From a bacterium (GTDB lineage Bacteria > Armatimonadota > Zipacnadia > Zipacnadales > Zipacnadaceae): a DNA stretch of 64,000 bases. The position numbers and the translations under genes were made by a program. The stretch covers positions 73,720 through 137,719 of the forward strand of contig JAUVZM010000001.1 in NCBI GenBank assembly GCA_030602615.1, read 5' to 3'. The notes beneath the pieces were generated by a model. That model made no database searches. It was not told the DNA's origin and saw only the letters and a list, made by a program, of their open reading frames with translations. How positions within the stretch are numbered: position 1 is the first letter of the stretch; each line of letters starts with the position of its first letter. Shown in pieces: positions 3,601-56,650 of the stretch.

Positions 3601-4167
3601 CCTATGATGTTCTTGACGCTTGAAGGTTTGGGCAAGCATCTGGAGACAGTCGTGTTTCCGGATGCCTATGAGAAATACCGAGACAATATCAACGAAGGCG
3701 GAGTTGTAGTCGTCAAGGGCAAAATTGACCGAAAGGGCGCGCGCAGTGACGATAGCAACGAGGTGAAGTTACTGTGTGACTGGATCAAGCCACTGGCGGA
3801 GAGTGCGGCCGTCTCGGAGCAACAACGGAAGCAAACTGAGCAAGGCCGGCTGGAGGGTAGGCCGGCACAATCCGCGGGCGACCAGCAGCCCGAACCTGCG
3901 CCGCTGGACATCTCGACTCCGGCCCGAACCGTATTCATTGAAGTGGATGCGACTGATTGTGGTGAGCAATCACTGCGCCGAATCAAACAGGTCATCGAAG
4001 CGAATCGTGGCCAGCAGCCGGTTGTGCTGAAACTGACCGGAGGCAATGGGGCACGGCGCGTGGAACTGGGCGAAGGCTATACGGTTGACTGCAGCGAGCA
4101 GTTTCCCATTCAAATCCGGCACTGTCCTGCTGTAATAACCCTGTGGCAGCAGGAAGCTGATAGCTAG
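625..4167 (+). CDS. dnaE: DNA polymerase III alpha subunit
   Basis: 1180 aa. N-terminal PHP motif HLHVHTEYSLLDGA, polymerase core, OB-fold tail. Confidence 0.95.
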   Translation: MAEQFAHLHVHTEYSLLDGACRLDQLAQRAAELGMPAVAMTDHGVMYGAIDFYKACQAVGVKPIIGCEIYVASDSRFERAPRQGQRTRHLTLLAENEAGYRNLLQIVSQAHLEGFYYHPRADLELLSDHAEGLIALSACKQGAIARAILDDNYAAARQQAEVAREVFGEDNFYLELMDHGLPGQKKIIAAKVQLSEELGIPVVATNDAHYVRQEDAEAHDVLLCIQTQATLSDLNRMRFETDEFYLKSPEEMAELFGEVPEALRNTVQIAERCNLELDLGAVRLPRVEVENGYDVTSYLRHLCEQNTVRLYGEDRPDVRKQLDYELDVIERADYSGYFLIVGDLIREAKSRGILIGPGRGSATGSIVAYLLGITDVDPLEYDLIFERMLNPERASPPDIDLDFPDDRREEIIEYVKEKYGRDHVAQVATFNTMGARAAIRDVGRVMGVPLDKVDALAKAVPPGTSLEEACELVPELSEARQEDTEIARMLDIGQRLEGLARHASVHAAAVVISEGPLTDYVPLRGEKDGMVTTQYPMGPVEEVGLVKIDFLGLKTLTACARALEAIQRNRQVELDLLAIPRDDPETFGLLCQGDTAGVFQLESEGMRGLMCKLQPDRFEHLIAAVALYRPGPMQHLDEFCEGRHGAAIEYLHPDLEPILEETYGVITYQEQVMQIAVKLAGFSMPQAEIIMRAMAKKQLKKMQQMKPKFLQGCIDNGVAERIAQGIYLRMESFSSYGFNKSHSAAYALVAYWTAYLKANYPGEFMAAHLSTVMDNSEDVGRYMNECRRMGLEVCGPTVNRSLAQFTARDGEVIFGLAAIKNLGSPTAQAVVAEREENGPYQGLGDLCRRLPGSKVPRTAVELLIKAGALDEFGERNALLAGLDSLYAAGQKYQRDQVTGQNSLFGEAGSGEVPTFDEQLPWVPEMPQSERLRLEKELLGLYVSSHPLIEKQEQLAQRTTAEIRELAEFADGTPVIVSGIIGQTKHYVTNSGAPMMFLTLEGLGKHLETVVFPDAYEKYRDNINEGGVVVVKGKIDRKGARSDDSNEVKLLCDWIKPLAESAAVSEQQRKQTEQGRLEGRPAQSAGDQQPEPAPLDISTPARTVFIEVDATDCGEQSLRRIKQVIEANRGQQPVVLKLTGGNGARRVELGEGYTVDCSEQFPIQIRHCPAVITLWQQEADS

Positions 4168-4192
4168 GGCAACAGGGCACCGGGCCGGGAAG

Positions 4193-5503
4193 GTGGCATC
4201 ACTGATGGCACCAATCATAGACGTTATTGATGCACGGACTGGCGACAGTTCAGCCCTGCAAGCGCTGCGCCAGCGGTCACTGGCCGACCTGCCTGACCAC
4301 ATCGAGACCGATGTACGGCGCATCGTTGAAGATGTTCGGCGGCGCGGTGACGAGGCGCTGATAGACTATGAGCGTCAGTTTGATTGTTCGAACTTCACTG
4401 CCGAGCACTTGGTAGTTGGCTCCGAAGAGATTGAGGGGGCCTATGCGCAGGTCTCCTCGGCCCAGTTAGGAGCACTGCGACGGGCCCGGGAGAATGTGTA
4501 TGAGTTTCACCTACATGCCCGGCCTCGCTCGTGGCTTGACGAATTCGATGGCATGTGGCTGGGGCAGCGGGTTACCCCGGTAGATTCGGCCGGCATTTAC
4601 GTGCCTGCCAGAAGCGCCCCCCTGCCTTCCACTGTGTATATGTGTGCGATGCCCGCCAAGGTGGCGGAAGTGCCGCAGATCGCTATATGTTCGCCGCCGC
4701 GCAAGGACGGTTCGCTTGATGCCTTGACGCTGGTGGCTGCCGCCGAGTGCGGCGTAGACGAGATATATCGTCTGGGAGGTGCCCAGGCCATCGCTGCTCT
4801 GGCCTTTGGTACGGAGAGCGTCGCGCCAGTCAGCAAGATTGTCGGCCCGGGCAATCCCTGGGTGACGATGGCCAAGAAACACGTCTACGGTATAGTGGGC
4901 GTTGATTCGCTGGCCGGGCCCAGCGAGGTGTTGGTAATCGCTGATGCAACTGCCAAGCCGGCTACGGTTGCGGCTGATCTGGTAGCGCAGGCCGAGCATA
5001 CCGGGGATAATATGGCGGTATTGATCACGCCCAGCCAAGCGCTCGCCGAGCAGGTAACCGCCGAACTGCAACAGCAAGTTGCGGGGGCTGAGCGGGTCAC
5101 CAAGATTCAGGATTCGCTGAGCGAGTTCGGCGCGATTGTACTGGTGCGGGATTTGCACCACGCTGCCCGGCTGGCCAGCGACATCGCCCCCGAGCACTTG
5201 CAACTGTTGGTGGATGATCCTCTGGCGCTGTTGGCCGAGATTGACCACGCCGGGTGTGTGTGTCTCGGAGAGCTGACGCCTGTGCCCCTGGGCGACTATG
5301 CTGCCGGTCCCAGTCATGTCCTGCCGACTGGTGGCACGGCCCGCTTCGCTTCGGGACTGGCGGTGGATGACTTTGTGAAGAAGACGTCGCTAATCTCTGC
5401 AACGCGCCGCGGCTTAGATCGGCTGGCCCCTGATGTAATTGAGTTGGCTGAGGCTGAAGGGTTGGAGGCACACGCTCAGGCGGTGCAGCAGCGCCGTCAC
5501 TAA
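4193..5503 (+). CDS. hisD: Histidinol dehydrogenase
   Basis: 436 aa. HisD-family similarity along the whole length, including the AGPSEVLVIAD segment. Alternative start at ATG 4205. Confidence 0.9.
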   Translation: MASLMAPIIDVIDARTGDSSALQALRQRSLADLPDHIETDVRRIVEDVRRRGDEALIDYERQFDCSNFTAEHLVVGSEEIEGAYAQVSSAQLGALRRARENVYEFHLHARPRSWLDEFDGMWLGQRVTPVDSAGIYVPARSAPLPSTVYMCAMPAKVAEVPQIAICSPPRKDGSLDALTLVAAAECGVDEIYRLGGAQAIAALAFGTESVAPVSKIVGPGNPWVTMAKKHVYGIVGVDSLAGPSEVLVIADATAKPATVAADLVAQAEHTGDNMAVLITPSQALAEQVTAELQQQVAGAERVTKIQDSLSEFGAIVLVRDLHHAARLASDIAPEHLQLLVDDPLALLAEIDHAGCVCLGELTPVPLGDYAAGPSHVLPTGGTARFASGLAVDDFVKKTSLISATRRGLDRLAPDVIELAEAEGLEAHAQAVQQRRH

Positions 5504-5597
5504 GCGCGCGCCGCCTGCCGCCCTCGAAGAGAGTTGCCGGGATAATAGCATCGGCGGCTCCCCCGTCCTCCTGGAGTTAACAGGCATCCCAGCACAG

Positions 5598-5990
5598 TTA
5601 GCTGCCAGCATAGACCCTGGTAACGTCATCGAGGACGGTGGTCAATTCATTGATGTCGAAGGGCTTGTAGAGGCAGGGCTGACCGGAAAGCTCCACGAAG
5701 CGGTTGGTCCGGGTGCCCAGGTTGTCCCCCGTGACGAAGATAACCCGCTGGGCTAGCTCTGGCGACTGATGCTGCCAGATCCTGAACAATTCCATCCCAT
5801 TGAGGATTGGCATCAGCAGATCGCAGATGACCGCGGAGTAGCTACGCTGGGCGCCCATCTGCAGGGCTTTTTCTCCGTCAGCAGCTCGGTCGACGGCATA
5901 GCCCAAATGCTCCAGCAGAGCCTGCATTAGCCGGGCCAAGGTATCTTCGTCGTCAACAATCAGTATTCGCTGTCCGTTGGGCGTCTCCAC
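5598..5990 (-). CDS. Single-domain response regulator (CheY-like receiver)
   Basis: 130 aa. ILIVDDEDTLARL...DLLMPILNGMELF receiver signature, no output domain. GTG start sits directly after the TAA of the upstream kinase (TAAGTG). Confidence 0.8.
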   Translation of the reverse strand: METPNGQRILIVDDEDTLARLMQALLEHLGYAVDRAADGEKALQMGAQRSYSAVICDLLMPILNGMELFRIWQHQSPELAQRVIFVTGDNLGTRTNRFVELSGQPCLYKPFDINELTTVLDDVTRVYAGS

Positions 5991-7679
5991 TTACTTATTC
6001 ACACTCCCACGGCTAGATTTATGGCGCTTGACCTCTTCTTCATTGGCGGCAGGCAGTATTATCTTGACTAGCATTCCGCTCTCCTGGCGGTTGGGTGATA
6101 CCAATACTTGCCCGCCAGCTTGCTGGACTGTGCTATATACCACCGGCAGGCCCATGTCCATGAACTTGTCCTGACTCTCTTCAATGGGTTCAGTGCCTTT
6201 GAGCAGTTCGGGTACTTCTCCTGGCTCGGGGGAGGGGCCGGTACTGCGGAACCTGATCTCCACGGCCTCGAAGCGGCGCCGCGCCTCGATATGCAGTTTC
6301 CGTGGCCCCGGCCAGTCTTCCATAGTCTGCCATACATAGGTTATGATATTGATGAAGCTGTGATAAAGACTATGGCGATTGGCGTGAGCCAGCGGCAGGT
6401 TGGCAGGAATATCCTGCTCTAGTTCGACCCCCGTGATCATCAGTTGCGGCTGGGTCAGCACCAGTGCTTGCTCCATTACCTCGTTTACGTCGGAGACTGG
6501 GGTACTCTCATCCCGGCCAGCGACGTAGACCTCCAACCCTCTGATGGCTGCGTTGCAGCGGTCAAGCTGACGGATGATCTCATGCCAGTCCGGTTCTTCA
6601 CCTATCACTTCGGCTACCTGGATGCTCATGCGAATGATGGCCAGGGGATTGTTGAGAGTATGTCCGAGGCTGGTCAGGACATGACGCACCGCCACGAACT
6701 TCTCGAGGTGCTTGAGCTCCTGCTGGGTTTGACACAGTTCGGTAATATCACGAATGGCAACATTGATGGTGGTTATCTGACTTTCTTCGGCAATCGGCAG
6801 GGCGCTGAACAGCAGCGTGTGAGGCGTGCCGTTCCCGCCAGTAGTGGTCAGGGGGATTTCTGAGACACTCTCTCCTGCCAGAATCTGGTTCTGATAGGGC
6901 CTGAGGCCCTCGGGATGGCGCAACTGCAGTAGTTCCACCAGGTTCTTCCCCTCCAGGCGGGGTCCGTCGCCGTTCCCCAGCATCCTGGCAGCCGTGGCAT
7001 TGGCCTCCTGCACCTGCCAAGCTGGATCCACTATCAGCAGTGCGTCGTCAGATGACTCGGTCATCTCCCAGTACCGGCGGGCCTTGTGCCGGGCAGTATC
7101 GTGGGCTTGGTAAAGCTGGGTCATGTATTTGCTGACTATCCAGCTTATGGAAATCAGCAATATGCTGTGGCTGGCGAGGGTAAGCAGTACTGCACTGCTG
7201 GCCGTCCCCATCATCAGGGCCTGAGCAGATAACGCTATGACTGCTCCGCCTGTAACCAGTCCGGTCTGGGTACTGCTGGCGCAGATGGCATAAACGACTA
7301 CGACCAGATATAGCAATGGCAGTAATGGGCTGTTCAAATGGCCAGTGAATTGCAACGCGAACGCAATCCACGCTATGTGCATTAGGGCCACAGCGCCACT
7401 TATCAGCCAACTACTTTGCTGGGTGTCCATTGCGAAGCTGACGGCCACCAGCGCTATGAGAACCAGCGTCACAGCGATGAAGTAGGCAATTTCTGGGAGC
7501 ACGATATACAGGACGCAACCAGCCACCAGAGCTGCGCCCAGCAGTACCAGACGCATCTCCCAGCTTAGGCGTGTCCGGGCATCATCGGCCACTGCACGGT
7601 GAACGTTTGGTTCCTCAACGTCCAGAGGTCTGATGGAGCTGACTTCGCCTTCCAATTTAGGTTCTGTTAGTGTCATCAT
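5991..7679 (-). CDS. Membrane sensor histidine kinase (multi-TM N-terminus, PAS, HisKA, HATPase)
   Basis: 562 aa. About 6 predicted TM helices, a PAS-like region, H-box LGHTLNNPL, C-terminal ATPase region. Confidence 0.8.
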   Translation of the reverse strand: MMTLTEPKLEGEVSSIRPLDVEEPNVHRAVADDARTRLSWEMRLVLLGAALVAGCVLYIVLPEIAYFIAVTLVLIALVAVSFAMDTQQSSWLISGAVALMHIAWIAFALQFTGHLNSPLLPLLYLVVVVYAICASSTQTGLVTGGAVIALSAQALMMGTASSAVLLTLASHSILLISISWIVSKYMTQLYQAHDTARHKARRYWEMTESSDDALLIVDPAWQVQEANATAARMLGNGDGPRLEGKNLVELLQLRHPEGLRPYQNQILAGESVSEIPLTTTGGNGTPHTLLFSALPIAEESQITTINVAIRDITELCQTQQELKHLEKFVAVRHVLTSLGHTLNNPLAIIRMSIQVAEVIGEEPDWHEIIRQLDRCNAAIRGLEVYVAGRDESTPVSDVNEVMEQALVLTQPQLMITGVELEQDIPANLPLAHANRHSLYHSFINIITYVWQTMEDWPGPRKLHIEARRRFEAVEIRFRSTGPSPEPGEVPELLKGTEPIEESQDKFMDMGLPVVYSTVQQAGGQVLVSPNRQESGMLVKIILPAANEEEVKRHKSSRGSVNK

Positions 7680-21453: not shown

Positions 21454-21635
21454 ATCCGATGGTAAAGACCCGCATTTACCATTTGTCACTGGGAGGTAAG
21501 AGAGCTGGATGAGGCCCTGGGCTTGACCGAGTTAACGGGGCTTACGCCGGTAGCGGGTGACTATGCCCTTACTGCGGCGAAGGATCGGTGGTGTTGCGTA
21601 TGCCCAGGCGGGATTGTCTCTGCTATCGCCCCAGC

Positions 21636-21669
21636 GCTGTCATACTTGTTCAATTCGGGGCAGAATCCC
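21636..21669 (+). promoter_or_regulatory. Conserved promoter module (copy A): CTGTCA, 18-nt spacer, CAGAAT
   Basis: 31 of 34 nt identical to 30322..30355, and matches the inverted copy at 26741..26771. RBS GAGGTGG and ATG 21683 follow. Confidence 0.55.
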
Positions 21670-24528: not shown

Positions 24529-26613
24529 TTACTCTCCCGCTACTGGCATCCACACGCGCATTGCGGAATCGGCGCGATTAGCCCAGGCATAATAGGGAAT
24601 AGCCGTCACCAGGACTTTGTCCCTACGCATTGTGGGTCGCGTACCTAGCGGATGATAGAGGGGACTGTTCTCCGGGGCATAGCAAACTGGCAAGGCCCGC
24701 CGGCGCAGGACGGTCACGCCGCCCAGCAGGTCGGGCTGCCACTCAGGCCGGAAGCCGCCCTCCGGGTCTGGCGTCTCGAAGACCAAGGCCAGGTCAGCCA
24801 GAACCGTGTCGGGATTATCTACACTCTCAAAGCAGTAGACTAACGGGCCACGCTGCAACGCCACACAGCCCCGGTTCTCCGCCACACGTGGATGGCTTTC
24901 CATTATTCGCACCGGCATTGGTAACTGCAGGCGGACCGTATCTCCGGGCCGCCACCGGCGTGTAAGCTTTAGATAATTGCCAGGCTCAATGGCCGCAGAC
25001 AATGGCTCATCATTCACCGCTGCCGCGGCTCCTGCTGCCCAGCCCGGAATGCGGAGGAAGAGAGTGAACTGTGCAGGTTGTTGCAAATCTAACGCGATTT
25101 CAATCTCGCCCTCCCCCGGGTACTTAGTGTCCATCTTCAGTGTGACTCGGGGGCCGTCGGGTACAGGGAGCGTGGCCTGGCAGGTATCGTAAAGGTGCAC
25201 CCAGAGGCCCTGGCGGCTGGTACTGAAGAGGTAACCGGGAACAGCCGCCAGCGTACGGTGGATGTTGGGGGGGCAGCAGTTGCACGGGAACCAGGACTGC
25301 CGCTGGTAGCCGCCGTCCGAGGCCAGCGGGTTGCCGTAGAAGTATTTGCTCCCGTCCAGAGATACGCCGGACAGAAAGCCATTGTATAGAATCGTCTCCA
25401 TCACATCCGCATACTGGGCCTCGCCCGTCAGCAGCAACATGCGCCAGGCCCACATTGCGTGCGCGATCTGTGCACAGCTCTCGGCATAGGCCCAGGTGAG
25501 TTCGTTATAGTGCGCCCGCGGTCCAGGGAAATACCCCCATCGTCCCCCGTGTTGTGAAGGCCGTGTACCGGTGGTGTCGGCCCAGGCGTTAGGCAGCTCG
25601 TACCGCTCACCGAAAGACTCGCCGCGAGCCCCCATGCCACCAGTGATGTAGATCTTACCTCCGACTAAGTCCTGCCACAAGGACTGCAGGTTGGCCCACA
25701 TCTGCTCGTCGCCAGTTTCAGCATAATAGTCAGCTCCGCCACAGCAGAGATAGCCGGACCGGACGGCGTGACCTACCACGATGCGATTGTTTAGATATTG
25801 GGACTGGCCCAAGAAGAAGGCAGCGAGGTCCCAATAGCGCGTCCTACCGGTGGTGCGGTACAGTTCGATCAGGGCCATTTCCACCTCGGGATGTCCGGGG
25901 GCGGCCTCGATTTTTCCGGGGCCAAACTCCTGGCATATATAATCAGCGAGGCGGCAGGCCACTTGCAGCAAACTGTCCTGGCCGGTGGCCCGGTAGTAGG
26001 CAATCGCCGCCTGCACTAGATGCCCGGCGCAGTACAGCTCATCGGGGCAAGTGTTGAGGAACAAGCGGCCGTCTTCGCCCTGGGCGGCTGCGATGTCGTC
26101 AATAATTGCTGCCACCGTTTGCCGCAGTTCAGGCAGATCCTGCGACTGGAGAGCCCAGGAGACCCCCTCCAGCCACTTATACAGGTCAGATTCGCTGCCG
26201 TAAGAAGCGTCCCGGAATTCAACCTGCTTGCGTCCGGACAGGCGCCGGAAATTATCCACCACCCCATGCTCCTCCATTAGACGTAGGAAAGTGGGCATTC
26301 CCTCCTTGGCATTGGCCTCCATTCGCGGCCGCCAAAAGCCTGGCCCCATTGCTACCGCCCGGATCGGCACCGATTGCAACCGAAACTGCGACCCCCGGCG
26401 GGTATCGACAACGCCGCCTTGTTGCCACTGGTCCTCCGGTTGTAGTTCCCTATCTTCGACAATGCCGCCGTTGGGGTCAAAACCTGTGCGTGCCACGACA
26501 CCCTCAGGCACCGGTCTGAAGGCTGGTTTAGCTTTTCCTGCACGAATCACGCTAACAAGCAATGCGCAAACACCAACTAGCACCAACAAGTCAGACAGTC
26601 TCATGTTCTTCAC
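24529..26613 (-). CDS. GH127 (DUF1680) beta-L-arabinofuranosidase-like glycoside hydrolase
   Basis: 694 aa. N-terminal signal anchor. GH127-type GFWRPRMEANAKEGMPTFLRLMEEHGVVDNFRR block and Cys-rich catalytic region. GTG start. Confidence 0.75.
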   Translation of the reverse strand: MKNMRLSDLLVLVGVCALLVSVIRAGKAKPAFRPVPEGVVARTGFDPNGGIVEDRELQPEDQWQQGGVVDTRRGSQFRLQSVPIRAVAMGPGFWRPRMEANAKEGMPTFLRLMEEHGVVDNFRRLSGRKQVEFRDASYGSESDLYKWLEGVSWALQSQDLPELRQTVAAIIDDIAAAQGEDGRLFLNTCPDELYCAGHLVQAAIAYYRATGQDSLLQVACRLADYICQEFGPGKIEAAPGHPEVEMALIELYRTTGRTRYWDLAAFFLGQSQYLNNRIVVGHAVRSGYLCCGGADYYAETGDEQMWANLQSLWQDLVGGKIYITGGMGARGESFGERYELPNAWADTTGTRPSQHGGRWGYFPGPRAHYNELTWAYAESCAQIAHAMWAWRMLLLTGEAQYADVMETILYNGFLSGVSLDGSKYFYGNPLASDGGYQRQSWFPCNCCPPNIHRTLAAVPGYLFSTSRQGLWVHLYDTCQATLPVPDGPRVTLKMDTKYPGEGEIEIALDLQQPAQFTLFLRIPGWAAGAAAAVNDEPLSAAIEPGNYLKLTRRWRPGDTVRLQLPMPVRIMESHPRVAENRGCVALQRGPLVYCFESVDNPDTVLADLALVFETPDPEGGFRPEWQPDLLGGVTVLRRRALPVCYAPENSPLYHPLGTRPTMRRDKVLVTAIPYYAWANRADSAMRVWMPVAGE

Positions 26614-26771
26614 TTCTTCTTTCAGCGAGATTTCCCAGATGCTTTGTTGCTGCCTGTAGCATCCTCTGTTTACTGCACTGCTTCCTCCCGATGCGGATCA
26701 TTTAGCTAGAAAAACTCCAGATTAGAACACTTCTGACGAAGATTCTACCCCGAATTGAACAAGTTTGACAA
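26591..26771 (-). promoter_or_regulatory. Conserved promoter + leader + uORF cassette (copy C, oriented with GH127)
   Basis: On the minus strand: TTGTCA, 18 nt, TAGAAT (plus coordinates 26741..26771). Leader CGTCAGAAGTgTTCTAATCT...GCATCGGGAGGAAGCAGTGCAG follows. A 23-codon uORF (26591..26662, MLQAATKHLGNL...) overlaps the GH127 start in the +1 frame. Confidence 0.55.
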
Positions 26772-26876
26772 CTTTTGGACCGATGGCAAAGACAGTCCCG
26801 CTTGGGCATAAACCCAATCACCATTGCTACAGAATAATGGTTCAACTGCTACCTATAATTCTAACACAACTGTCCC

Positions 26877-29111: not shown

Positions 29112-29289
29112 CCCCGTCAGAAGTCTTCTAATCTCGGGTCTTTCTAGCTAATTGATTCGCATCCGGAGGAATTAGTGCAGGAAATAGAGAATGTCAAACG
29201 TAGTAACAAACGATATGAGAGACCCCAGTTCACTGTCATCCAGGCATTCCTGGTGCTCTGGCTCGACTAAGGGGGAAAGGAATAACGCT
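29112..29289 (+). promoter_or_regulatory. Conserved leader + uORF cassette (copy 1, lacks the -35/-10 module)
   Basis: CCCCGTCAGAAGTCTTCTAATCTCGGGTCTTTCTAGCTAATTGATTCGCATCCGGAGGAATTAGTGCAGGAAATAGAGAATG, about 90 % identical to copy 2. The uORF ATG at 29191 (MSNVVTNDMRDPS...) runs in frame into the PIG-L gene. Confidence 0.55.
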
Positions 29290-30198: not shown

Positions 30199-30321
30199 TC
30201 GTACAGTGGTCTTTATGTTGTCAACTGTATCAGTATGCGGGTGGATATGGCAGGTGCACCAAGCGGCGGTTGTTCTGTCTGATGTTGCCAAGGCAGGAGT
30301 GTCTCTGCCCTGGGCCCGCAA

Positions 30322-30508
30322 GCTGTCATACTTGTTCAGTTCGGCGCACAATCCCCGTCAGAAGTCTTCTAATCTCGGGTCTTTCTAGCTAATTAATCCG
30401 CATCGGAGGAATTAGTGCAGCAAACAGAGAATATGAGTAGTCCCAGATTAGTGCAGGAAACAGAGAATGTTGAACGTACTGGCAAAGCATATGAGAAATC
30501 CCAGCTAA
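30322..30508 (+). promoter_or_regulatory. Conserved promoter + leader + uORF cassette (copy 2)
   Basis: CTGTCA, 18 nt, CACAAT module, then the same ~80-nt leader with an internal 22-nt duplication (ATTAGTGCAGcAAACAGAGAAT repeated). 13-codon uORF at 30467..30508 (MLNVLAKHMRNPS). Located upstream of the MttB-like gene. Confidence 0.55.
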
Positions 30509-47749: not shown

Positions 47750-48556
47750 TTGGCCACAGTATCAGAGCGTGAGAAGTTGGAAGCAGAAGAGCTAGAGGAT
47801 CGAGTAATCCGGATTGACCGCACTCGCAAGACCGTAGCGGGCGGGCGGTTATCGAGTGCCCGCGTTGTAGTTGCTGTTGGCGATAATCGGGGGCACATCG
47901 GTCTGGGGATAGGCAAGGCCCGTAATGTTCCGGAGGCGATTTCTAAGGGAATTCGTAGAGCGAAGAAGAACATGATTGACATCCCACTGGATGGATACAC
48001 CATTCCTCATGTAACCCAGGCCAAAGTTGGCGGTGCCGTCATTCTGCTCAGGCCGGCCTCACGGGGTACCGGTATCGTCGCTGGTGGTGCAGTCCGGCAA
48101 CTGATCGAGATCAGCGGTATCCGCGACATACTGACCAAGTCGCTGGGCAGCGGCAATGTGATGAACCGCGCCAAGGCCTGTTTTAAGGCGCTGTCGGAGT
48201 TGCGAAATCCCCACGAAGTTGCCGAACGGCGGGGCATAGCCGTCGAGGAGATGATGGACCGCGAGATTGTCAATCCGTATGATGAAGAGGAAGTTGAGGA
48301 AAAGGAGGAAGCGGCCGAGGCTATAGAGGGCGGACAGGAAGCACCTGCGGAGACAGTCGCGGCTGCTGCCGATGCCCAACCCGAACCGGAGGCCGAAGAG
48401 GCAGAAGAAGTCGGGGCGGCTGAAGCTGAAGAAGAGGTGCTCGCCGAGGGTGGCGAAGAGGCAGAAACTGAGGTCGTGGCCGCGGCCATCGAGGCTTCCA
48501 GCGAACAGGCAGAGCAAGACGCTGAACAGCAACAAGCTGGCGACGAGCAAGAATAG
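47750..48556 (+). CDS. rpsE: Ribosomal protein S5 homologue with long acidic C-terminal extension
   Basis: TTG start. Residues 1-165 align with bacterial S5 (KTVAGGR, VVVAVGD..G.IG.G.GKA, PASRGTGIVAGG). The last ~100 aa are Glu/Ala-rich low complexity. Confidence 0.8.
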   Translation: MATVSEREKLEAEELEDRVIRIDRTRKTVAGGRLSSARVVVAVGDNRGHIGLGIGKARNVPEAISKGIRRAKKNMIDIPLDGYTIPHVTQAKVGGAVILLRPASRGTGIVAGGAVRQLIEISGIRDILTKSLGSGNVMNRAKACFKALSELRNPHEVAERRGIAVEEMMDREIVNPYDEEEVEEKEEAAEAIEGGQEAPAETVAAAADAQPEPEAEEAEEVGAAEAEEEVLAEGGEEAETEVVAAAIEASSEQAEQDAEQQQAGDEQE

Positions 48557-48610
48557 GCTGGCTGGGTCCCGGGCGGTCTGGAGTTGGAGATTGTAGCAAC
48601 TGGAGTGTTG

Positions 48611-48669
48611 AGCCGGCTTGTCACTTGGCAAGCCGGCTTTTGGTAAGCCCGCCTCCTTTTCGGCGGGCT
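48611..48669 (+). terminator. Tandem terminator hairpins after the S5-like gene
   Basis: AGCCGGCTTG-tcacttgg-CAAGCCGGCT followed by TTTTGG, then AGCCCGCC-tccttttc-GGCGGGCT. Confidence 0.65.
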
Positions 48670-49237
48670 ACCTCCCAATCATCCCCCCATTGTCTCCGCC
48701 TCGCCGGCTAGTACGGAGGCCGTCGTTGCTTCTGGCTTACCTAGTGGGTGTCGGATGGTGAGGTATTCCCCTGTGGCAAAGTGGTCTTTGCTGGAGACCG
48801 GCCACATGCGCTGCGCAGTCAGTGTTGATAAGTCAGGGAGTTGCACCTGCCTGTGGAAAGATGAGAAGGTGAGCAGGGGGGCGTGCTGGGCAAAGGAAAC
48901 AGCGAGACGCCCAGTGGGTGTGGCATGTGAAGGAGGGAGGGTGGAACCTTCTCATGACCTGGCTATCCCGCAGGTGCGGGTGATTGGGCGCCTCGCTTGT
49001 TTTGTGCAATAGTATAGACGTTTCCCGCTATGAAAAGGTTCCCTTGCCCTTGATTACTTCGGCTTTTTCAGGGAATTCTGAAGGCTCCGCTGAGCTTGCT
49101 ATTGGCCAATAATAGGCCATCTTTCCACATTTACAGGCGAAATGCACCTGTTATCAACTGACTTTTCCACAATTCTACGTCACTGCCAAGGACTCATCTG
49201 GAGCCCGTCGTTAGTTGTCCAGTTGAAGATGTCCTGC

Positions 49238-50293: not shown

Positions 50294-50574
50294 AGAAATC
50301 CGTCTCCAACAAACGTTCTAAAGACCTTCTCCGTCATGGATCTTTCTCAGACCCGACGACTTGGTAGTTCGCGGCGAAGCGGACGTCCTCCTGCTACCTT
50401 GCAGCGGATAGTGAGCGCAGCCCACTGGTAGCAGGAGTAATATAGATAGGAAACTTTTTGCCCGCTCAAACCGTCATAGAGAGACAGTAGCGAGGCGATC
50501 GCGCAAGAACCGGTCGCCTCGTCGTTGAGTTAGCACTATAAGTAGGTAGTGTCCTTGCCGACAGGAGTGATTCG

Positions 50575-51201
50575 ATGAGTATCAGCAAATATCGGCAGCG
50601 TCGGGTGAAGTCTGGCAGATTGTTTGGGGCAGTATTTGCTTGGGTAATGCTGGCGCTGGTAGCATTGCTTACCACCGGCCTCGCTACGGGACGTGAAGAC
50701 AATAACGCGTCGTCTGAGAAGTCGGCGACAGCAGACACTGGCCGGAGGGACGATGTGGATAATAATGACGGAAAACAACTACCAGCGAATCCAGTTCAGA
50801 GAGTGGCTCACAAGGCCCTGAAGGGCGAGTACGGCAAGCTGGAAGACTGGCAGTATAAGGCGTATAAGTATGCTCTGATCCAGGAAGCTAGTGTTAACGG
50901 AGTGGCCTGGGTCACCAGTTACGGCCCCTGGGAAGGCTTTATGTTCGGCGAGGCTTGCGCCTTCGGCTATGGCTGTAGTGACTCGACTGCCGCCGCTAAC
51001 CTGATCCCCTCACATTATTATGTCCTCATAGAGCTGCCCGAAGGCTGGGAAGCGCGGCGCATTGAAGACTGTGGCGCCAAGCGCAATGACTTTGTGGCCC
51101 GCCGCAAGGGCGCGCAGGTGTGGATTGACCGCTGGGTGCGAACCAATGAGGGCAGCTACCTCACCCGCTACGCCTCCATCCGCGCCTTCAAGACCTGGTA
51201 G
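50575..51201 (+). CDS. Hypothetical secreted / membrane-anchored protein (possible 3D / DPBB-like C-terminus)
   Basis: 208 aa, N-terminal TM. Cys- and Gly-rich C-terminal domain. The 3D/DPBB domain assignment is speculative. Confidence 0.35.
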   Translation: MSISKYRQRRVKSGRLFGAVFAWVMLALVALLTTGLATGREDNNASSEKSATADTGRRDDVDNNDGKQLPANPVQRVAHKALKGEYGKLEDWQYKAYKYALIQEASVNGVAWVTSYGPWEGFMFGEACAFGYGCSDSTAAANLIPSHYYVLIELPEGWEARRIEDCGAKRNDFVARRKGAQVWIDRWVRTNEGSYLTRYASIRAFKTW

Positions 51202-51249
51202 TAAGCCCCTGCTCCGCAAATGACCTCGCGTAGTCTTCCGCCGCCTTAC

Positions 51250-51390
51250 GGAAAGAGCCCCAGGTAGCTGATTGCTCCGCCAATCGCGCGGGAGTCGGTC
51301 AGCGTCAGGTCCACCCGCCAGGAACGGTCGGGAGCCGCGCGCAGCCCGTAGTTGAACCAGTCGGTGTCGTATTCCCCGATTACTGCCAGG
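51250..51390 (-). pseudogene. Duplicated 3'-terminal fragment (about 47 codons plus stop) of the YjbH-like gene at 52444..54708
   Basis: About 94 % nucleotide identity to 52447..52589. The frame is intact and encodes ...VIGEYDTDWFNYGLRAAPDRSWRVDLTLTDSRAIGGAISYLGLFP*. Confidence 0.6.
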
Positions 51391-51442
51391 CCCTGGGAGG
51401 TAATGAGATATCGGACGGAGAACCTCAGGCACAGTAGGAGGT

Positions 51443-52324
51443 ATGTCGCAAATCTGGACTAAAAGGTGGTTCCTGGATATGTGCCAGTTCTGCGTCAAAC
51501 ATGGTGAAGGCAAGAAATGGTATCTGCAGGCAAAGAACTATGCTGAGGACCTGCTGAGCGATCTGCGGCGACGCAATGTCATCACCAATTTTTTTGGTCA
51601 TCCCGAGCACTTGGCCGAGGACTCCACCCGGCTGGCAAGCCTCGCCCGGGCACCGGCTCTTGTGCGACGCGCAATCAGCGGACTAGTGACTCGCCGGATG
51701 AAGAAACAGCATTTTGGCCAGGTGCTGCCGCTGGAAGACATCGAGGTCATCTTCGGATTTGTCAATTCCATTGTGCGGGTGCCATGCATCTGCCGCCACA
51801 TCATACTTGGCCGCGAAGTAGGATACTGCTATGGTATCTCAATGGGCCCGGGTGGTGGTGCGTTTGGTGACTTGCTGAAGAACCTGGACGATAGCTTCTT
51901 GTTCGGCCCAGATACTTCCGAGTTCGAAGAGCTGAATGCTCAGGAGGCGCTGGAGGCATTCGCCGACCACGAAAAGGAAGGTCTCTGCCACAGTGTCTGG
52001 ACCTTTGTGACTCCTTTCATTGGCGGGATATGCAACTGCGACCGAGTTGATTGTATGGCCATGAGAGCCACAGTGGTACATGATGTGAAGGTGATGTTTC
52101 GGGCGGAGTATGTCGCTGAGGTGAATCCCGACCTGTGTACGGGCTGCCGTTCCTGCATGCGTGTTTGTCAGTTCGGGGCACTTGTCTACAGTGCTGCCGA
52201 CCAGAAGGCCTCCGTAGACCAGACGGCCTGCTATGGTTGTGGCGTCTGTCGCAGCGCCTGTCCCAATGACGCCCTCGAACTGAAGCCGCGTGCGGAAGTG
52301 CCGGTTGTGGCTAACTTGTGGTAG
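51443..52324 (+). CDS. 4Fe-4S dicluster domain protein (ferredoxin-like C-terminus, Cys-rich N-terminus)
   Basis: CTGCRSCMRVC and CYGCGVCRSACP motifs, plus N-terminal CQFC and CICRH cysteines. Strong RBS GGAGG. Confidence 0.6.
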   Translation: MSQIWTKRWFLDMCQFCVKHGEGKKWYLQAKNYAEDLLSDLRRRNVITNFFGHPEHLAEDSTRLASLARAPALVRRAISGLVTRRMKKQHFGQVLPLEDIEVIFGFVNSIVRVPCICRHIILGREVGYCYGISMGPGGGAFGDLLKNLDDSFLFGPDTSEFEELNAQEALEAFADHEKEGLCHSVWTFVTPFIGGICNCDRVDCMAMRATVVHDVKVMFRAEYVAEVNPDLCTGCRSCMRVCQFGALVYSAADQKASVDQTACYGCGVCRSACPNDALELKPRAEVPVVANLW

Positions 52325-52443
52325 TTTTCGTCTAGCTTGCTGTTCCGCACTACTGGAGAAAAGGGTCGGCTTTTCGCGGATCCCCGGTGTGACTTTCTGG
52401 TGCGGTCTCACCGCCGCTCCTGGGGCCGGAATTGCCCACTTGT

Positions 52444-54708
52444 CTAGGGAAAGATGCCCAGGTAGCTGACCGCGCCGCCAATCGCGCGGGAATCGGTCAG
52501 CGTCAGGTCCACCCGCCAGGAACAGTCGGGAGCCGCGCGCAGCCCGTAGTTGAACCAGTCGGTGTCGTATTCCCCGATTACCGCCAGGGTTGGGGAAAGG
52601 CGGTATTCCGCCCCGCCGAACAGCCCACTAAGCCGCTTCGTGCCTCTGCCCAGGTGTACGCGGAGGTCACCCAGTTGCTGCGTTGCCACGATGTATTCGG
52701 CACGGCCGACGACCTCAGCGTCATCGCGGAAGCTGATGTCCTGGGCACCAATGGCAACAGCCGGGACATTGCCGTGCTGCGGCCAGAGCTGATAGTGGGC
52801 AAATACGCTGCGGTCAGTGCTGTAGTCCCAATTGGGAAAGTGGAGTGGTTCGATATCGGGAAATATGCTCAGGCGGAAGCCCAGCTCCAGGCCAGGAAGC
52901 AGCCCCACGTTGACAAAGGTGGGAATCATATCGCTGCGGTCGGCATGGGCTCCCCTGGTGTAGTCGGAATCTATGAAGCTAGCACCGACCCGATAGCTGC
53001 CATCGGGGATCACATTGGCCGTCGGTATGCGGATCAGGCCAGAAATGCCCTCGTGGGAGGGCCCCGGGATCCAGCTTTGCTTGGACATATCCCGGCGCTG
53101 GCTTGCCTGACGGCGAGAGTCAGCCGTCAGGTATGGCCCACTCAATTCGCCGCGGAAGGCGCGCAAGTCATGATCTCCCCGTAACATCTCTGTCCCTGGC
53201 GTCCCCCTATCGGTGAAGTAATCAAGAGCCAGGTAGTCAGAGGTGCGCAACCGCAAGGGCGCGGGATCATCAACCCGGCGCGGGCCAAACGGTACGGTCA
53301 CCCGCACGATTCCTTCACGCACTGGTGAGTGAACTGTTATGCCCGCCCTGAGAGTGCTCTCACCGAAACGCCGGTCCAGCTCCACCAGGCCAGTGGGGTC
53401 TATGTAGTCGGCGAACTGGCCCGCCGTGGCTCGGATGGTCAGTCCGAGGTTGCCAAACTCGTGTTCGTAGTATCCCAGCCACATGGGAATGTCAAGGTCC
53501 CAGTCGTCACGGCCCACTCGGGCCAGGCGCACACCGGCCCGCCCGTCGCCCAACTCTAATTGGGCCTCGCCAAAGGCTCCGCGCAGGCGGGTGTCGAATC
53601 GGCCCGCGCTGGCAGTCCAAAGCACTCGACCACCCATGAGTCGTCCGGTCCTGGTCAGCAAGGCGTGACTTAAGTGTGCGCCTGGGTTGTCGGCTTGCAG
53701 GCTGCCCTGCAGCGACATGCGCCAGCCCGGTGCGATGGTGGTGCTAAGCTGGGGCAGCACGAACCAGTCGGTAATGATCGGACGACGCCAGTTACCGATC
53801 TCGTAGTCCAGGGCTGGGCGGAAGCTCAGATCAAAGCGCCCAAAGCTTTCGTTGAGCAGCCCACTGCTGTCGGCCACCGCGCCATCGGGCGCCGTCGGAC
53901 GAGTTTCCCTCAGTCCCTCCGGAACAGCGCCGGGCTTTGGCAATTGCTGAGATTTGTCGGCTTTGGTGGTGACGGTGATAACGGGCACGTCGTCGCGCTT
54001 GGCCGTCAGATACAAAACCGTGCCTGCCGAACAATGCTGAGAAGCAATCTGCGCTGCTATGCCCAGTGCCTCTGTATCGCTGCGGTAGGTACGGTTTTCA
54101 TATTCTATAGCTATGTGGCCGGATTCGAGCAGGCTTACTGCGACGTTTTCCAGTCCGGCCCCGACAAGGGCCTGTCCTATCTTTGAGGCGAAGCCAGGCT
54201 GCAGGCTCGGTGGCTTGGTGGTTGTGGGGCGTGGGGCAGGCTCTGCCTGGAGCGTTTGGTATCCGGGTTCACCGGGTTGCCCAATCTGCGGTGCGCCTGT
54301 GGCGGCTGCCGCTTGCTGCAGGAGCCTGCCGGCCTCCGCCATAGCCTCGGATCCGGCATTTCTCTCGGCGAAATGCATAAGGCCAGAGGGGCTGGTGGAA
54401 AACTCGAGAAAGTGCCGGCCCTCGCGCCGGGCGATGACACAGACTTTGTCGCAGCCACCGATGATATCCTGGGTGCCAACAGCGATTAGGGCAAGTGCTA
54501 GCTTATCCGAGAACTGTTTGCTGAAGGCGTATGTGATGGATAGCTCGTTGTTCTGACGCTCGAAGCTGACTTCCTGCAATCCGCAGGCAACAAGTAGCTG
54601 CTTGCCCTCCTGCTGGGCAGTGCCGCCTTCAGCGTACCCGGCAACGGCGACTAGGCCACATACGAGCATCCATGCAACGATACGCCATTCAGAACGTCGC
54701 ACCAGCAT
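52444..54708 (-). CDS. YjbH/GfcD-family-like putative outer-membrane beta-barrel protein (polysaccharide-export associated)
   Basis: 754 aa. Signal peptide. SGLIRIPTANVIPDGSYRVGASF resembles the YjbH GLL.mPtAr.. motif. Beta-rich with alternating aromatic residues, C-terminal aromatic end. Confidence 0.4.
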   Translation of the reverse strand: MLVRRSEWRIVAWMLVCGLVAVAGYAEGGTAQQEGKQLLVACGLQEVSFERQNNELSITYAFSKQFSDKLALALIAVGTQDIIGGCDKVCVIARREGRHFLEFSTSPSGLMHFAERNAGSEAMAEAGRLLQQAAAATGAPQIGQPGEPGYQTLQAEPAPRPTTTKPPSLQPGFASKIGQALVGAGLENVAVSLLESGHIAIEYENRTYRSDTEALGIAAQIASQHCSAGTVLYLTAKRDDVPVITVTTKADKSQQLPKPGAVPEGLRETRPTAPDGAVADSSGLLNESFGRFDLSFRPALDYEIGNWRRPIITDWFVLPQLSTTIAPGWRMSLQGSLQADNPGAHLSHALLTRTGRLMGGRVLWTASAGRFDTRLRGAFGEAQLELGDGRAGVRLARVGRDDWDLDIPMWLGYYEHEFGNLGLTIRATAGQFADYIDPTGLVELDRRFGESTLRAGITVHSPVREGIVRVTVPFGPRRVDDPAPLRLRTSDYLALDYFTDRGTPGTEMLRGDHDLRAFRGELSGPYLTADSRRQASQRRDMSKQSWIPGPSHEGISGLIRIPTANVIPDGSYRVGASFIDSDYTRGAHADRSDMIPTFVNVGLLPGLELGFRLSIFPDIEPLHFPNWDYSTDRSVFAHYQLWPQHGNVPAVAIGAQDISFRDDAEVVGRAEYIVATQQLGDLRVHLGRGTKRLSGLFGGAEYRLSPTLAVIGEYDTDWFNYGLRAAPDCSWRVDLTLTDSRAIGGAVSYLGIFP

Positions 54709-55209: not shown

Positions 55210-55723
55210 TCCAACTGCACCTCCGTTCAAGTTGTAGGTTCCTGGGCAGGGTGCTTCGCAGTACAGCTGGGCGCTGCTGGCGGGCCAGCCCCTTCTGCTC
55301 TGCGTGCCATTGGCGAAAGTTGTGGCCTCTTCTCAGCTATCCTCCACCTGAGCAGGCCACATTCTCATCTGTATCGCCAATGTCCCTGCACCACCCTATC
55401 TGCAATTGGTGTGCCAGACTTCTCACCCTACAGGAATCTCCCACCACGACAGCGCATTTTTCTGGCGTACTCGGGTTTAGGTTGACAATTTATGGGTAAT
55501 ATATTGACATTCTTGCCACAATTGACAGATAACTGCCAAACTGGCTAGCAGGCAGTTCTTGGAACTGCCATCAAAGCAGCCTTAGGCCAGTTTGAAACTA
55601 CAGTTTATGCCGTCTGGGGGGCAGGCGCAACACGCGCCGCTCCCCAGGCGGCATTTTCTTTTGTGCAAGCAAATCGCCGTGATGACAAGCTGCATAGCGC
55701 AAGTGAACATTAGGAGGTACATG

Positions 55724-56650
55724 ATGAGAAACTATCAGCAACGCAGTGTAATTCTTGTAGGAGTGTTGGCGTTCATTCTGTTGGTTACTGGATGTGGCGG
55801 AGGCCCTTCCATGGCCCCGGGAGTAGGTAATGCTCCCTCCCCCGTAACCGGTAAGATCGCCTTCTGCACCACCCGTGACGGTAACCATGAGATCTATTTG
55901 ATGGATACCGACGGCAGCGGCCAGACCAATCTTACCAACAATCCGGCCCTGGACGCAACCCCGGCGTGGTCGCCCGACGGCAGCAAGATTGCCTTCCGAA
56001 GCGATCGCGACGGCAACTCTGAGATCTACGTGATGGGTGCCGATGGCAGCAACCCAACCCGGCTCACCAATAACTCGGCGTTGAACTCAGCGCCAGCCTG
56101 GTCGCCCGACGGCACTAAGATTGCCTTCCAGAGCGACCTCACCGGCCAGTATGAGATCTGGGCGATGAACGCCGATGGCACCGGACAAGTCAATCTTACC
56201 AACGACTCGGCGCGGGACTTGTACCCGGCCTGGTCTCCCGATGGCGCCGAGATTGCCTTCACCAGCGAACGCGACGGGGACGCTGAGATCTACGTAATGG
56301 GTGCCGATGGTACCAGTCCAACCCGGCTTACCAACAGCTCAGCGGTGGAATCGGCTCCGGCCTGGTCGCCTGATGGTACTAGGATTGCCTTCAGCAGGAG
56401 AGAAGCCGACAGCTACTATTACGATGTCTATGTGATGAACGCTGACGGCAGTGACCAAGTCAATCTTACAAACGGAGCCCCTCCGTCGGATTTGACCCCA
56501 ACGTGGTCGCCCGATGGCACCAGGATTGCCTTCCAGAGCAGCCGGGTGGCACCGTACGAAATCTACGTGATGAACGCTGACGGCACTGGGCGAACCAATC
56601 TTACCAATACCTCGGCCAAGGAGTCCTGGCCGGTGTGGTCGCCGCATTGA
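55724..56650 (+). CDS. TolB-like beta-propeller lipoprotein (PD40 / WD40-like repeats)
   Basis: AGGAGG RBS, lipobox LLVTGCGG, and seven IAF.S.RDGN.EIYVM.ADGS...LTN repeats. Start set to ATG 55724; the tool ORF starts at 55592. Confidence 0.75.

Follow-up and report, generated by a model that had tools for sequence, protein, structure and literature searches.

In Escherichia coli K-12 the prophage e14 sits within icd in an instructive manner: it starts 165 nt before the end of the gene and supplies those 165 nt itself, and the native 165 nt are found at its far end as the icdC pseudogene. The two versions are about 93% identical and their homology ends 1 nt after the stop codon. Decayed relatives of integrative and conjugative or integrative and mobilizable elements (ICEs and IMEs), the cis-mobilizable elements (CIMEs), retain attL and attR at the 3' end of a gene and have lost the genes for integration and transfer (PMC5704250). 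Gene ends are also exchanged by less specialised means; for rhs tips, homologous recombination with circular intermediates, by which the old C-terminus is displaced, has been proposed, with no dedicated recombinase (PMC2935791), and arrays of type VI secretion system (T6SS) effector and immunity genes provide a precedent for orphaned 3' ends (PMC5361080). Here we describe a footprint of this already known kind at the end of a YjbH-like gene in a member of the Armatimonadota (GTDB family Zipacnadaceae; assembly GCA_030602615.1, contig JAUVZM010000001.1, positions 73,720 to 137,719 of the forward strand). What is unusual about it is a cargo of one gene and no recombinase. The 64-kb stretch that was analysed (64,000 nt) is referred to as the window, and positions are counted from its first letter.

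A segment of 1,198 nt is inserted in the YjbH-like gene at a point 153 nt before the stop codon (Table 1). It is composed of a 77-nt leader, the gene for a 281-aa Fe-S protein, a 119-nt spacer, and its own version of the last 51 codons and stop of the target gene, here called copy B. Copy B now completes the YjbH-like gene, and the former gene end, copy A, has been pushed 1.2 kb away, where it is kept as a non-functional orphan together with its native 44-nt spacer and the neighbouring gene for a 208-aa protein. L-numbered sequences are contigs or unitigs with which the window was compared.

Table 1. Features of the insertion locus and of the second orphan; positions refer to the window unless a contig is named.
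Feature	Position	Strand	Basis
YjbH-like gene, complete, 754 aa, target of the insertion	52444..54708	-	Pfam YjbH PF06082, E = 2.7e-21
Gene for a conserved hypothetical 208-aa protein, native convergent neighbour of the YjbH-like gene	50575..51201	+	Homologues beside YjbH in relatives
Native spacer, 44 nt, from the 208-aa gene to the original YjbH stop	51202..51245	.	Homologous spacer of equal length in empty sites
Copy A, displaced native YjbH-like 3' end (orphan, 51 codons + TAA)	51246..51401	-	Homology to L017/L011 to ~51401
Leader of the insert, 77 nt; its left edge is the novel junction	51402..51478	+	Common only to L005, ~90% identity
Cargo gene, 281-aa protein with C-terminal 2x[4Fe-4S] ferredoxin domain	51479..52324	+	Pfam Fer4; homologue lengths
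Insert-borne spacer, 119 nt, from the 4Fe-4S gene stop to the YjbH stop	52325..52443	.	92% identical to L005
Copy B, functional YjbH-like 3' end, insert-borne at least in part	52444..52599	-	L005/L003 similarity
Second orphan YjbH 3' end	L013 ~280-436; L014 ~4681-4837; L015 3501-3638		Pattern scan

The direct repeat that frames the insert is real. A repeat search of the 64-kb window returned one two-copy family at 94% identity, with starts 1198 nt apart, in which 51247-51390 and 52445-52588 align over 144 nt without gaps and with 135 of the 144 bases identical; blastn agreed (93.75% identity, E = 3e-57) and detected no third copy in the window. The first-pass annotation, which was made from the letters alone, had described a ~94% identical direct repeat duplicating the 3' end of the YjbH-like gene and had proposed a search for further copies of the unit; the repeat holds, and the two copies are the only ones within the window. 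The coordinates and length then given (~141 nt) understate it. The nine mismatches of the 144-nt alignment lie at 51249, 51257, 51258, 51272, 51273, 51276, 51294, 51326 and 51384, and, because past 51390 copy A goes on agreeing with the L017 and L011 allele and copy B has another one, the full homologous unit is 156 nt, or 51 codons plus stop. Over these 156 nt the copies differ at 17 positions (89% identity), the differences clustering at both edges and leaving only 2 in the middle 107 nt, with shared exact stretches of 31 and 57 nt; 5 of the 51 encoded residues differ. Copy A keeps the reading frame up to a terminal TAA and lacks a gene body, and it should be annotated as a pseudogene fragment, not as a gene.

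Comparison with related genomes shows what the site looks like when unoccupied. Four related contigs (L002, L011, L017 and L019) carry an empty site, in which the YjbH-like gene, a 44-nt spacer (8858-8901 in L002, 8628-8671 in L017) and the 208-aa gene follow one another without a 4Fe-4S gene; at this place the window is longer than these genomes by 1,198 nt. L018, a unitig that ends inside the repeat, is probably of the empty-site type as well. Homologues of the 208-aa gene, at 85-92% identity, adjoin YjbH in all five of these sequences, and the YjbH-like orthologues in syntenic contigs are 84-87% identical to that of the window, among about ten close relatives of the protein at 56-92% identity. 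The fullest comparison is offered by L002, a 33-kb Logan contig whose gene order equals that of the window on both sides (aldo-keto reductases, a PD40 protein, a small ORF, YjbH, the 208-aa gene, TsaD, S5, ParB, ParA and GidB), with the 4Fe-4S gene missing. The first-pass annotation had read the arrangement as the insertion of a one-gene segment and had suggested examining syntenic loci; the four relatives, with a whole YjbH-like gene beside the 208-aa gene and no 4Fe-4S gene, agree with that reading, and a fifth contig, L005, shares the insertion.

The two copies of the repeat are two different alleles that already existed in the population. The outer flank of copy A is the native spacer and that of copy B is unrelated to it, showing no relation either to the DNA downstream of YjbH in L002, L003, L004 or L016, and the two copies cease to be homologous at the stop codon. 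Towards the gene body, copy A follows the L017/L011 allele (GCCC.GGGAG.T) to ~51401, and copy B has the allele of L003 and L005. Copy A differs from L017 at 12 of 156 nt and, in a comparison of the last 45 nt only, from L011 at a single position, and 49 of the 51 residues that it encodes are those of the L017 C-terminus. Copy B is closest overall to L003 (9 mismatches in 156 nt, 2 of them in the last 45 nt), with 2 mismatches to L005 in the last 45 nt only, and its stop-proximal ~28 nt carry no mismatch to L005, the first falling at 52471. From these allele patterns, copy A is the displaced native gene end, and copy B arrived, at least in its stop-proximal part, together with the spacer and the cargo. 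Two pre-existing alleles do not make a fresh target-site duplication, and the earlier suggestion that the event duplicated the target sequence is not borne out, given 17 mismatches in 156 nt. Differences clustered at the edges are compatible with gap repair during integration, or with gene conversion between the copies at a later time.

L005, an independently assembled 1.8-kb contig with ~91% identity to the window, runs unbroken from the leader through the 4Fe-4S gene and the spacer into copy B and 617 nt of YjbH body, and it begins with the last 12 nt of the orphan and so has the same junction as the window. Synonymous divergence (dS) between the window and L005 is 0.16 in the 4Fe-4S gene and 0.35 in the adjacent YjbH-like gene, and the non-coding spacer is 92% identical. 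These values hint that the cargo may have moved between the lineages more recently than the lineages split; we treat the dS contrast as suggestive only, since mismatches per 100 nt (3-11 versus 7-20 across the cargo/gene border) change gradually and without a step. We note that position 1 of L005, a SPAdes contig at 2.8x coverage, corresponds to window 51389/51390 and lies one base before the point at which copies A and B diverge, and that the contig starts without the k-1 overlap normally left by a break in a de Bruijn graph, which is unexplained.

A second orphan was recovered when metagenome and genome collections were scanned with a degenerate DNA pattern for EYDTDWFNYG, a motif inside the repeat. 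The scan yielded L013 and L014, which are overlapping contigs, and L015 (JALGTV01), from the Candidatus Zipacnadia metagenome-assembled genome (MAG) Meg22_1012_Bin_287 of the Armatimonadota. Their orphan is 86-90% identical to other gene ends, is without a YjbH body, and has its stop codon mutated to CAA; L015 seems to end inside it, as assemblers do at repeated sequence. Its outer flank shares ~36 nt with the downstream flank of YjbH in L004 and not with that of the window. On its inner flank are genes unrelated to the present cargo, for a Gly-rich protein, a NapH-like Fe-S membrane protein and NosL, and a DUF1559 pilin-like gene lies on its other side. The body-side edge of this orphan is nevertheless within 0-1 nt of that in the window, before the codon A[T/C]C of ..EYR|ISP... 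By our own estimate, the chance of two independent random breakpoints in a 2.3-kb gene giving the same edge is roughly 1% or less, and the shared breakpoint suggests a site-specific docking point. The leader of the window has no similarity to the cargo beside the L013 orphan, and in a search for a motif common to the window leader and spacer and the L013/L014 orphan flanks, local alignment scores were no better than those of shuffled sequences.

The DNA immediately following the YjbH stop falls into five lineage types without shared sequence, namely the native type, that of the window and L005, and those of L003, L004 and L016; no DNA common to the downstream regions of L003, L004 and L016 was found. 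Because the DNA after the stop differs among lineage types, the end of the YjbH-like gene is a hotspot for rearrangement.

We favour, at a probability of about one half, the view that the primary event was an att-type site-specific integration at a fixed point, and that what is now present is an integrase-less remnant or satellite gained and lost through recombination between the copies. Several features argue for this origin: the empty sites in four relatives keep the identical 44-nt spacer and neighbour; the flank of copy A is native and that of copy B foreign, with homology ending at the stop; the copies are different population alleles whose differences sit at the edges, with 2 in the middle 107 nt; in its measurements the structure agrees with icd/icdC at e14; the second orphan, with unrelated cargo, breaks at the same nucleotide; five types of post-stop DNA mark a hotspot; and L005 shares the junction including the 12-nt orphan tail. 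Between the window and L005 the cargo also diverges less than YjbH at sites that are probably close to neutral (dS), which is compatible with lateral spread. In outline, integration would have taken place in the 3' end of a protein gene, with the incoming DNA bringing a replacement end and the crossover point being the body-side edge of the repeat. The element would now be, or may always have been, an integrase-less single-gene cassette, comparable to a decayed CIME that needs a recombinase in trans. The repeat-cargo-repeat unit could then be gained and lost among related lineages by RecA-dependent recombination between the copies, excision restoring an intact gene, and ends-in or gap-repair re-insertion would explain a nearly identical middle of 107 nt with differing edges.

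A number of observations weigh against such an origin. Pfam searches of the window ORFs of at least 110 aa revealed no integrase, excisionase, transposase or relaxase domain, in line with the first-pass remark that no integrase or transposase is present; three of these ORFs (231, 390 and 171 aa) have no Pfam match at all. No recombinase was found among the Pfam-tested genes in the 3.7 kb beside the L013 orphan, nor in the 4 to 6.4 kb downstream of YjbH in L003 and L004, nor in a 6-kb block of L016, several of the tested genes near these four sites being without a family match. No phage or viral contig was found to carry the repeat or the 4Fe-4S gene. At the breakpoint there is no evident inverted-repeat core site, and the repeat has no notable fold, its single-strand DNA scoring z = +1.1 and 0.0 against shuffled sequence. 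The cargo is host-like and belongs to a widespread family that does not look mobile, other members of which lie in ordinary operon contexts without flanking repeats. The recurrent breakpoint is known from only two cases. Finally, L016 (JAUWYY01, MAG CSMAG_2722) has its 6-kb block (1162-7173) between the stops of YjbH and the 208-aa gene without any orphan; it consists of two tandem DUF6785/DUF6784 membrane-protein genes (89.8% identical) and GH42-like remnants, and the native spacer is gone.

Further searches for known types of element were negative. No terminal inverted repeats were found at the insert ends, Rfam gave nothing in the window, and no dif-like (XerC/D) site was recognised at the breakpoint by eye. 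An integron gene cassette, or an attC-like structured repeat, is ruled out, as the repeat folds no better than shuffled sequence and no IntI was found. We also find no support for the 4Fe-4S gene as a generally mobile cassette, since its homologues stand in ordinary contexts without flanking repeats and none was found in viral contigs.

The alternative that survives best, and which we regard as a serious possibility even though we would not ourselves choose it, is a recombinase-independent insertion anchored by homology, a form of C-terminal displacement, in which DNA of a related lineage carrying the 4Fe-4S gene beside its own YjbH end was incorporated. Such DNA might have been joined on one side by a homologous crossover in YjbH and on the other illegitimately (homology-facilitated illegitimate recombination), or a small circle bearing part of the gene end might have integrated through a single RecA crossover; in both cases the former end would come to lie downstream. 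The lack of a recombinase nearby is expected here, the cargo resembles common chromosomal DNA of this clade, each copy is a different population allele, and homology stops at the stop codon, where two gene neighbourhoods would diverge. The mosaic make-up of copy B, which shows no mismatch to L005 over its stop-proximal ~28 nt and is native-like further in, agrees with a crossover inside the repeat, and the Rhs tips with their circular intermediates and the T6SS effector-immunity arrays are published precedents. However, an illegitimate joint is expected at a random position, yet the L013/L014 orphan breaks at the same nucleotide +/- 1, and we found no relative in which the 4Fe-4S gene and YjbH are natively adjacent without an orphan tail, L005 already having the junction. 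A homologous anchor and the signature of a related donor are both present; the recurrence of the joint position in a second lineage is not something that homology-facilitated illegitimate recombination predicts.

The same recurrence invites a bolder extension of the site-specific interpretation, which we consider unlikely as a whole but worth stating. The last 51 codons of YjbH-like genes could be a reusable docking site in Candidatus Zipacnadia-like Armatimonadota, at which unrelated cargo enters at the same nucleotide in different lineages with no cargo-encoded recombinase. The agent would be a recombinase of the host or one acting in trans, or a site-specific break repaired from small circles that consist of a gene end plus cargo, and the 1.2-kb unit would be the smallest cassette, circulating purely by excision and ends-in re-insertion. 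The feature that stays unexplained is a recurrent breakpoint with no recombinase in sight.

Quite improbable, by comparison, is a duplication-insertion in situ whose copies were identical at birth and diverged later, whether by a replication template switch that picked up the 4Fe-4S gene at another locus and returned 156 nt upstream, or by an unusually long target-site duplication. A middle of 107 nt differing at 2 positions, a host-like composition of the cargo and the absence of mobile-element genes would all suit it, but the differences at the edges reproduce the alleles of other lineages (in the last 45 nt, 1 mismatch between copy A and L011, and 2 each between copy B and L003 or L005), the outer end coincides with the stop codon, which is not expected of a random template switch or staggered cut, the breakpoint recurs, and there are no terminal inverted repeats to be found. 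As for an ordinary target-site duplication by a transposon or insertion sequence, the repeat is, as noted in the first-pass annotation, far longer than these are, and its 156 nt, the two alleles, and the lack of inverted repeats and of a transposase rule it out.

That the arrangement is an artefact of assembly, a strain chimera or a mis-threaded repeat not present on one molecule, is very unlikely. The source looks like a metagenome assembly, the exact 31- and 57-nt stretches shared by the copies are unresolvable by short k-mers, and the link from the stop-proximal part of copy A to the leader is taken from the assembly. However, Logan unitig L001 (1169 nt), which was assembled independently from raw reads of run SRR14872667, matches window 51354-52522 at 100% identity and covers the leader, gene, spacer and parts of both copies. 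According to the blastn mismatch list, its ends fall exactly where 31-mers stop being common to both copies, the last shared 31-mer of copy A starting at 51353 and the shared 31-mer of copy B being 52493-52523; both copy variants and both inner junctions therefore exist in raw reads. In addition, the independent assembly of another lineage, L005, runs from the orphan tail through the YjbH body without a break, and copies that are 6-11% diverged are unlike a collapsed or expanded repeat.

Least credible is a function for copy A as a silent cassette, be it a donor for gene conversion by which a surface protein would change its C-terminus or the template repeat of a diversity-generating retroelement, for although its frame is intact, its peptide undecayed and nearly that of a functional allele (49/51 residues), and the middle of the copies looks homogenised, there is only one cassette, differing from copy B at 5/51 residues, the orphan is absent in most relatives and has lost its stop codon in L013, and a retroelement of this type is ruled out by the lack of a reverse transcriptase and by mismatches that are not adenine-specific (4/9 at copy A adenines).

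The sole gene between the copies, listed as the ORF 51443..52324, encodes the 4Fe-4S protein. Pfam Fer4 families match only its residues 224-279, the C-terminal 55 residues, and matches in NCBIfam and PDB are likewise limited to the ferredoxin domain; the N-terminal region is Cys-rich and has no family match. More than 3700 homologues were found at 60-94% identity, nearly all of 280-283 aa and mostly of 281 aa, and because of this uniform length the true start is probably 51479, which has a possible ribosome-binding site in the leader (AAGGTGG, 8 nt upstream of the ATG). The alternative start at 51443 would give 293 aa and has GGAGG just 1 nt before its ATG. The GC content of the cargo is 0.56 versus 0.59 +/- 0.025 for the window. 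No sigma-70-like promoter was found in the leader, and a scan of 50400-52800 for promoters and terminators gave nothing above chance. An exact-protein look-up of the 754-aa and 281-aa products returned no record, and the product of the neighbouring 208-aa gene matches nothing in Pfam or NCBIfam.

The 64-kb window as a whole is core, origin-proximal DNA (dnaE, hisD, ATP synthase, aro genes, dinB, gidB-parAB and a rib operon), and several other observations were made in it. Another single-gene presence/absence difference lies 2 kb from the insert, where L002 (11200-12608, against window 48473-48902) has an extra gene for a 330-aa aldo-keto reductase between TsaD and S5 that is absent from the window. 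Ribosomal protein S5 itself (47750-48556, + strand) has a Glu/Ala-rich C-terminal extension of ~105 aa past the Pfam S5 domains, and its length is similar in L002 and L017 (266-276 aa). Periodic repeats of ~130 nt at 55853-56643 (66-71% identity) are the PD40 beta-propeller blades of ORF 55592..56650, and are ordinary. A further sequence of 80-150 nt recurs with 80-94% identity at 26661-26808 (-), 29112-29192 (+), 30286-30432 (+) and 21599-21667 (-), just upstream of genes for GH127 (24529..26613, -), a PIG-L deacetylase (29191..) and an MTTB-like protein (30555..), and partly of a HEAT-repeat gene (21557..); it ends in a GGAGG ribosome-binding site and may be a shared promoter or a regulatory leader in the 5' untranslated region.

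The locus provides a clean natural example, from an uncultivated phylum, of one chromosomal gene slipped into a conserved core region with the target gene undisrupted. With a repeat on either side, ordinary recombination can readily remove the cargo or transfer it between related lineages, which is one route to single-gene presence/absence polymorphism. If the shared breakpoint is a real docking site, it would represent an unrecognised site-specific system in the Armatimonadota, and orphan gene ends with fixed edges would be a simple signature by which hotspots might be found in metagenomes.

Among the systems with which the locus can be compared, Campbell-type integration (insertion-duplication, or ends-in) of a circle bearing a gene fragment gives a reversible repeat-insert-repeat structure whose extent is set by the homology on the circle. 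It predicts hybrid copies, as in the mosaic copy B, and taken alone it leaves unexplained why the unrelated cargo of another lineage abuts the same breakpoint. At rhs loci and in T6SS arrays, as here, an incoming 3' end with downstream cargo displaces the resident end, which is left downstream as an orphan; there, however, the new tip is a different toxin and the cargo its immunity gene, whereas here the old and new ends specify almost identical peptides and the cargo has nothing to do with the function of the target gene.

The resemblance to e14, and to phage 21 in icd, lies in the anatomy: in each case the incoming DNA provides a replacement for the last ~50 codons, and the original end survives, still in frame, as an orphan on the far side of the insert. 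The repeat measures 165 nt in icd (about 93% identity) and 156 nt here (89-94%), and both end at the stop codon. Direct repeats of a gene end, a native flank on the orphan, a foreign flank on the other allele and empty sites are all found in the present case; an integrase or excisionase is not, the insert holding only the Fer4 gene. The scale differs accordingly, e14 being 15 kb with intE and xisE, in contrast to an insert of 1.2 kb with one metabolic-looking gene and no recombinase found in 64 kb. The locus also resembles a CIME, in that the repeats are kept and no recombinase is found, although descent from a larger element is here only presumed, and we know of no helper element or integrase family for this Armatimonadota site. 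The att repeats of CIMEs described in Firmicutes are tens of nt long, as against the 156 nt of the present repeat. The site of a CIME can be re-used by further elements, and the existence here of another orphan with this breakpoint is in keeping with such re-use.

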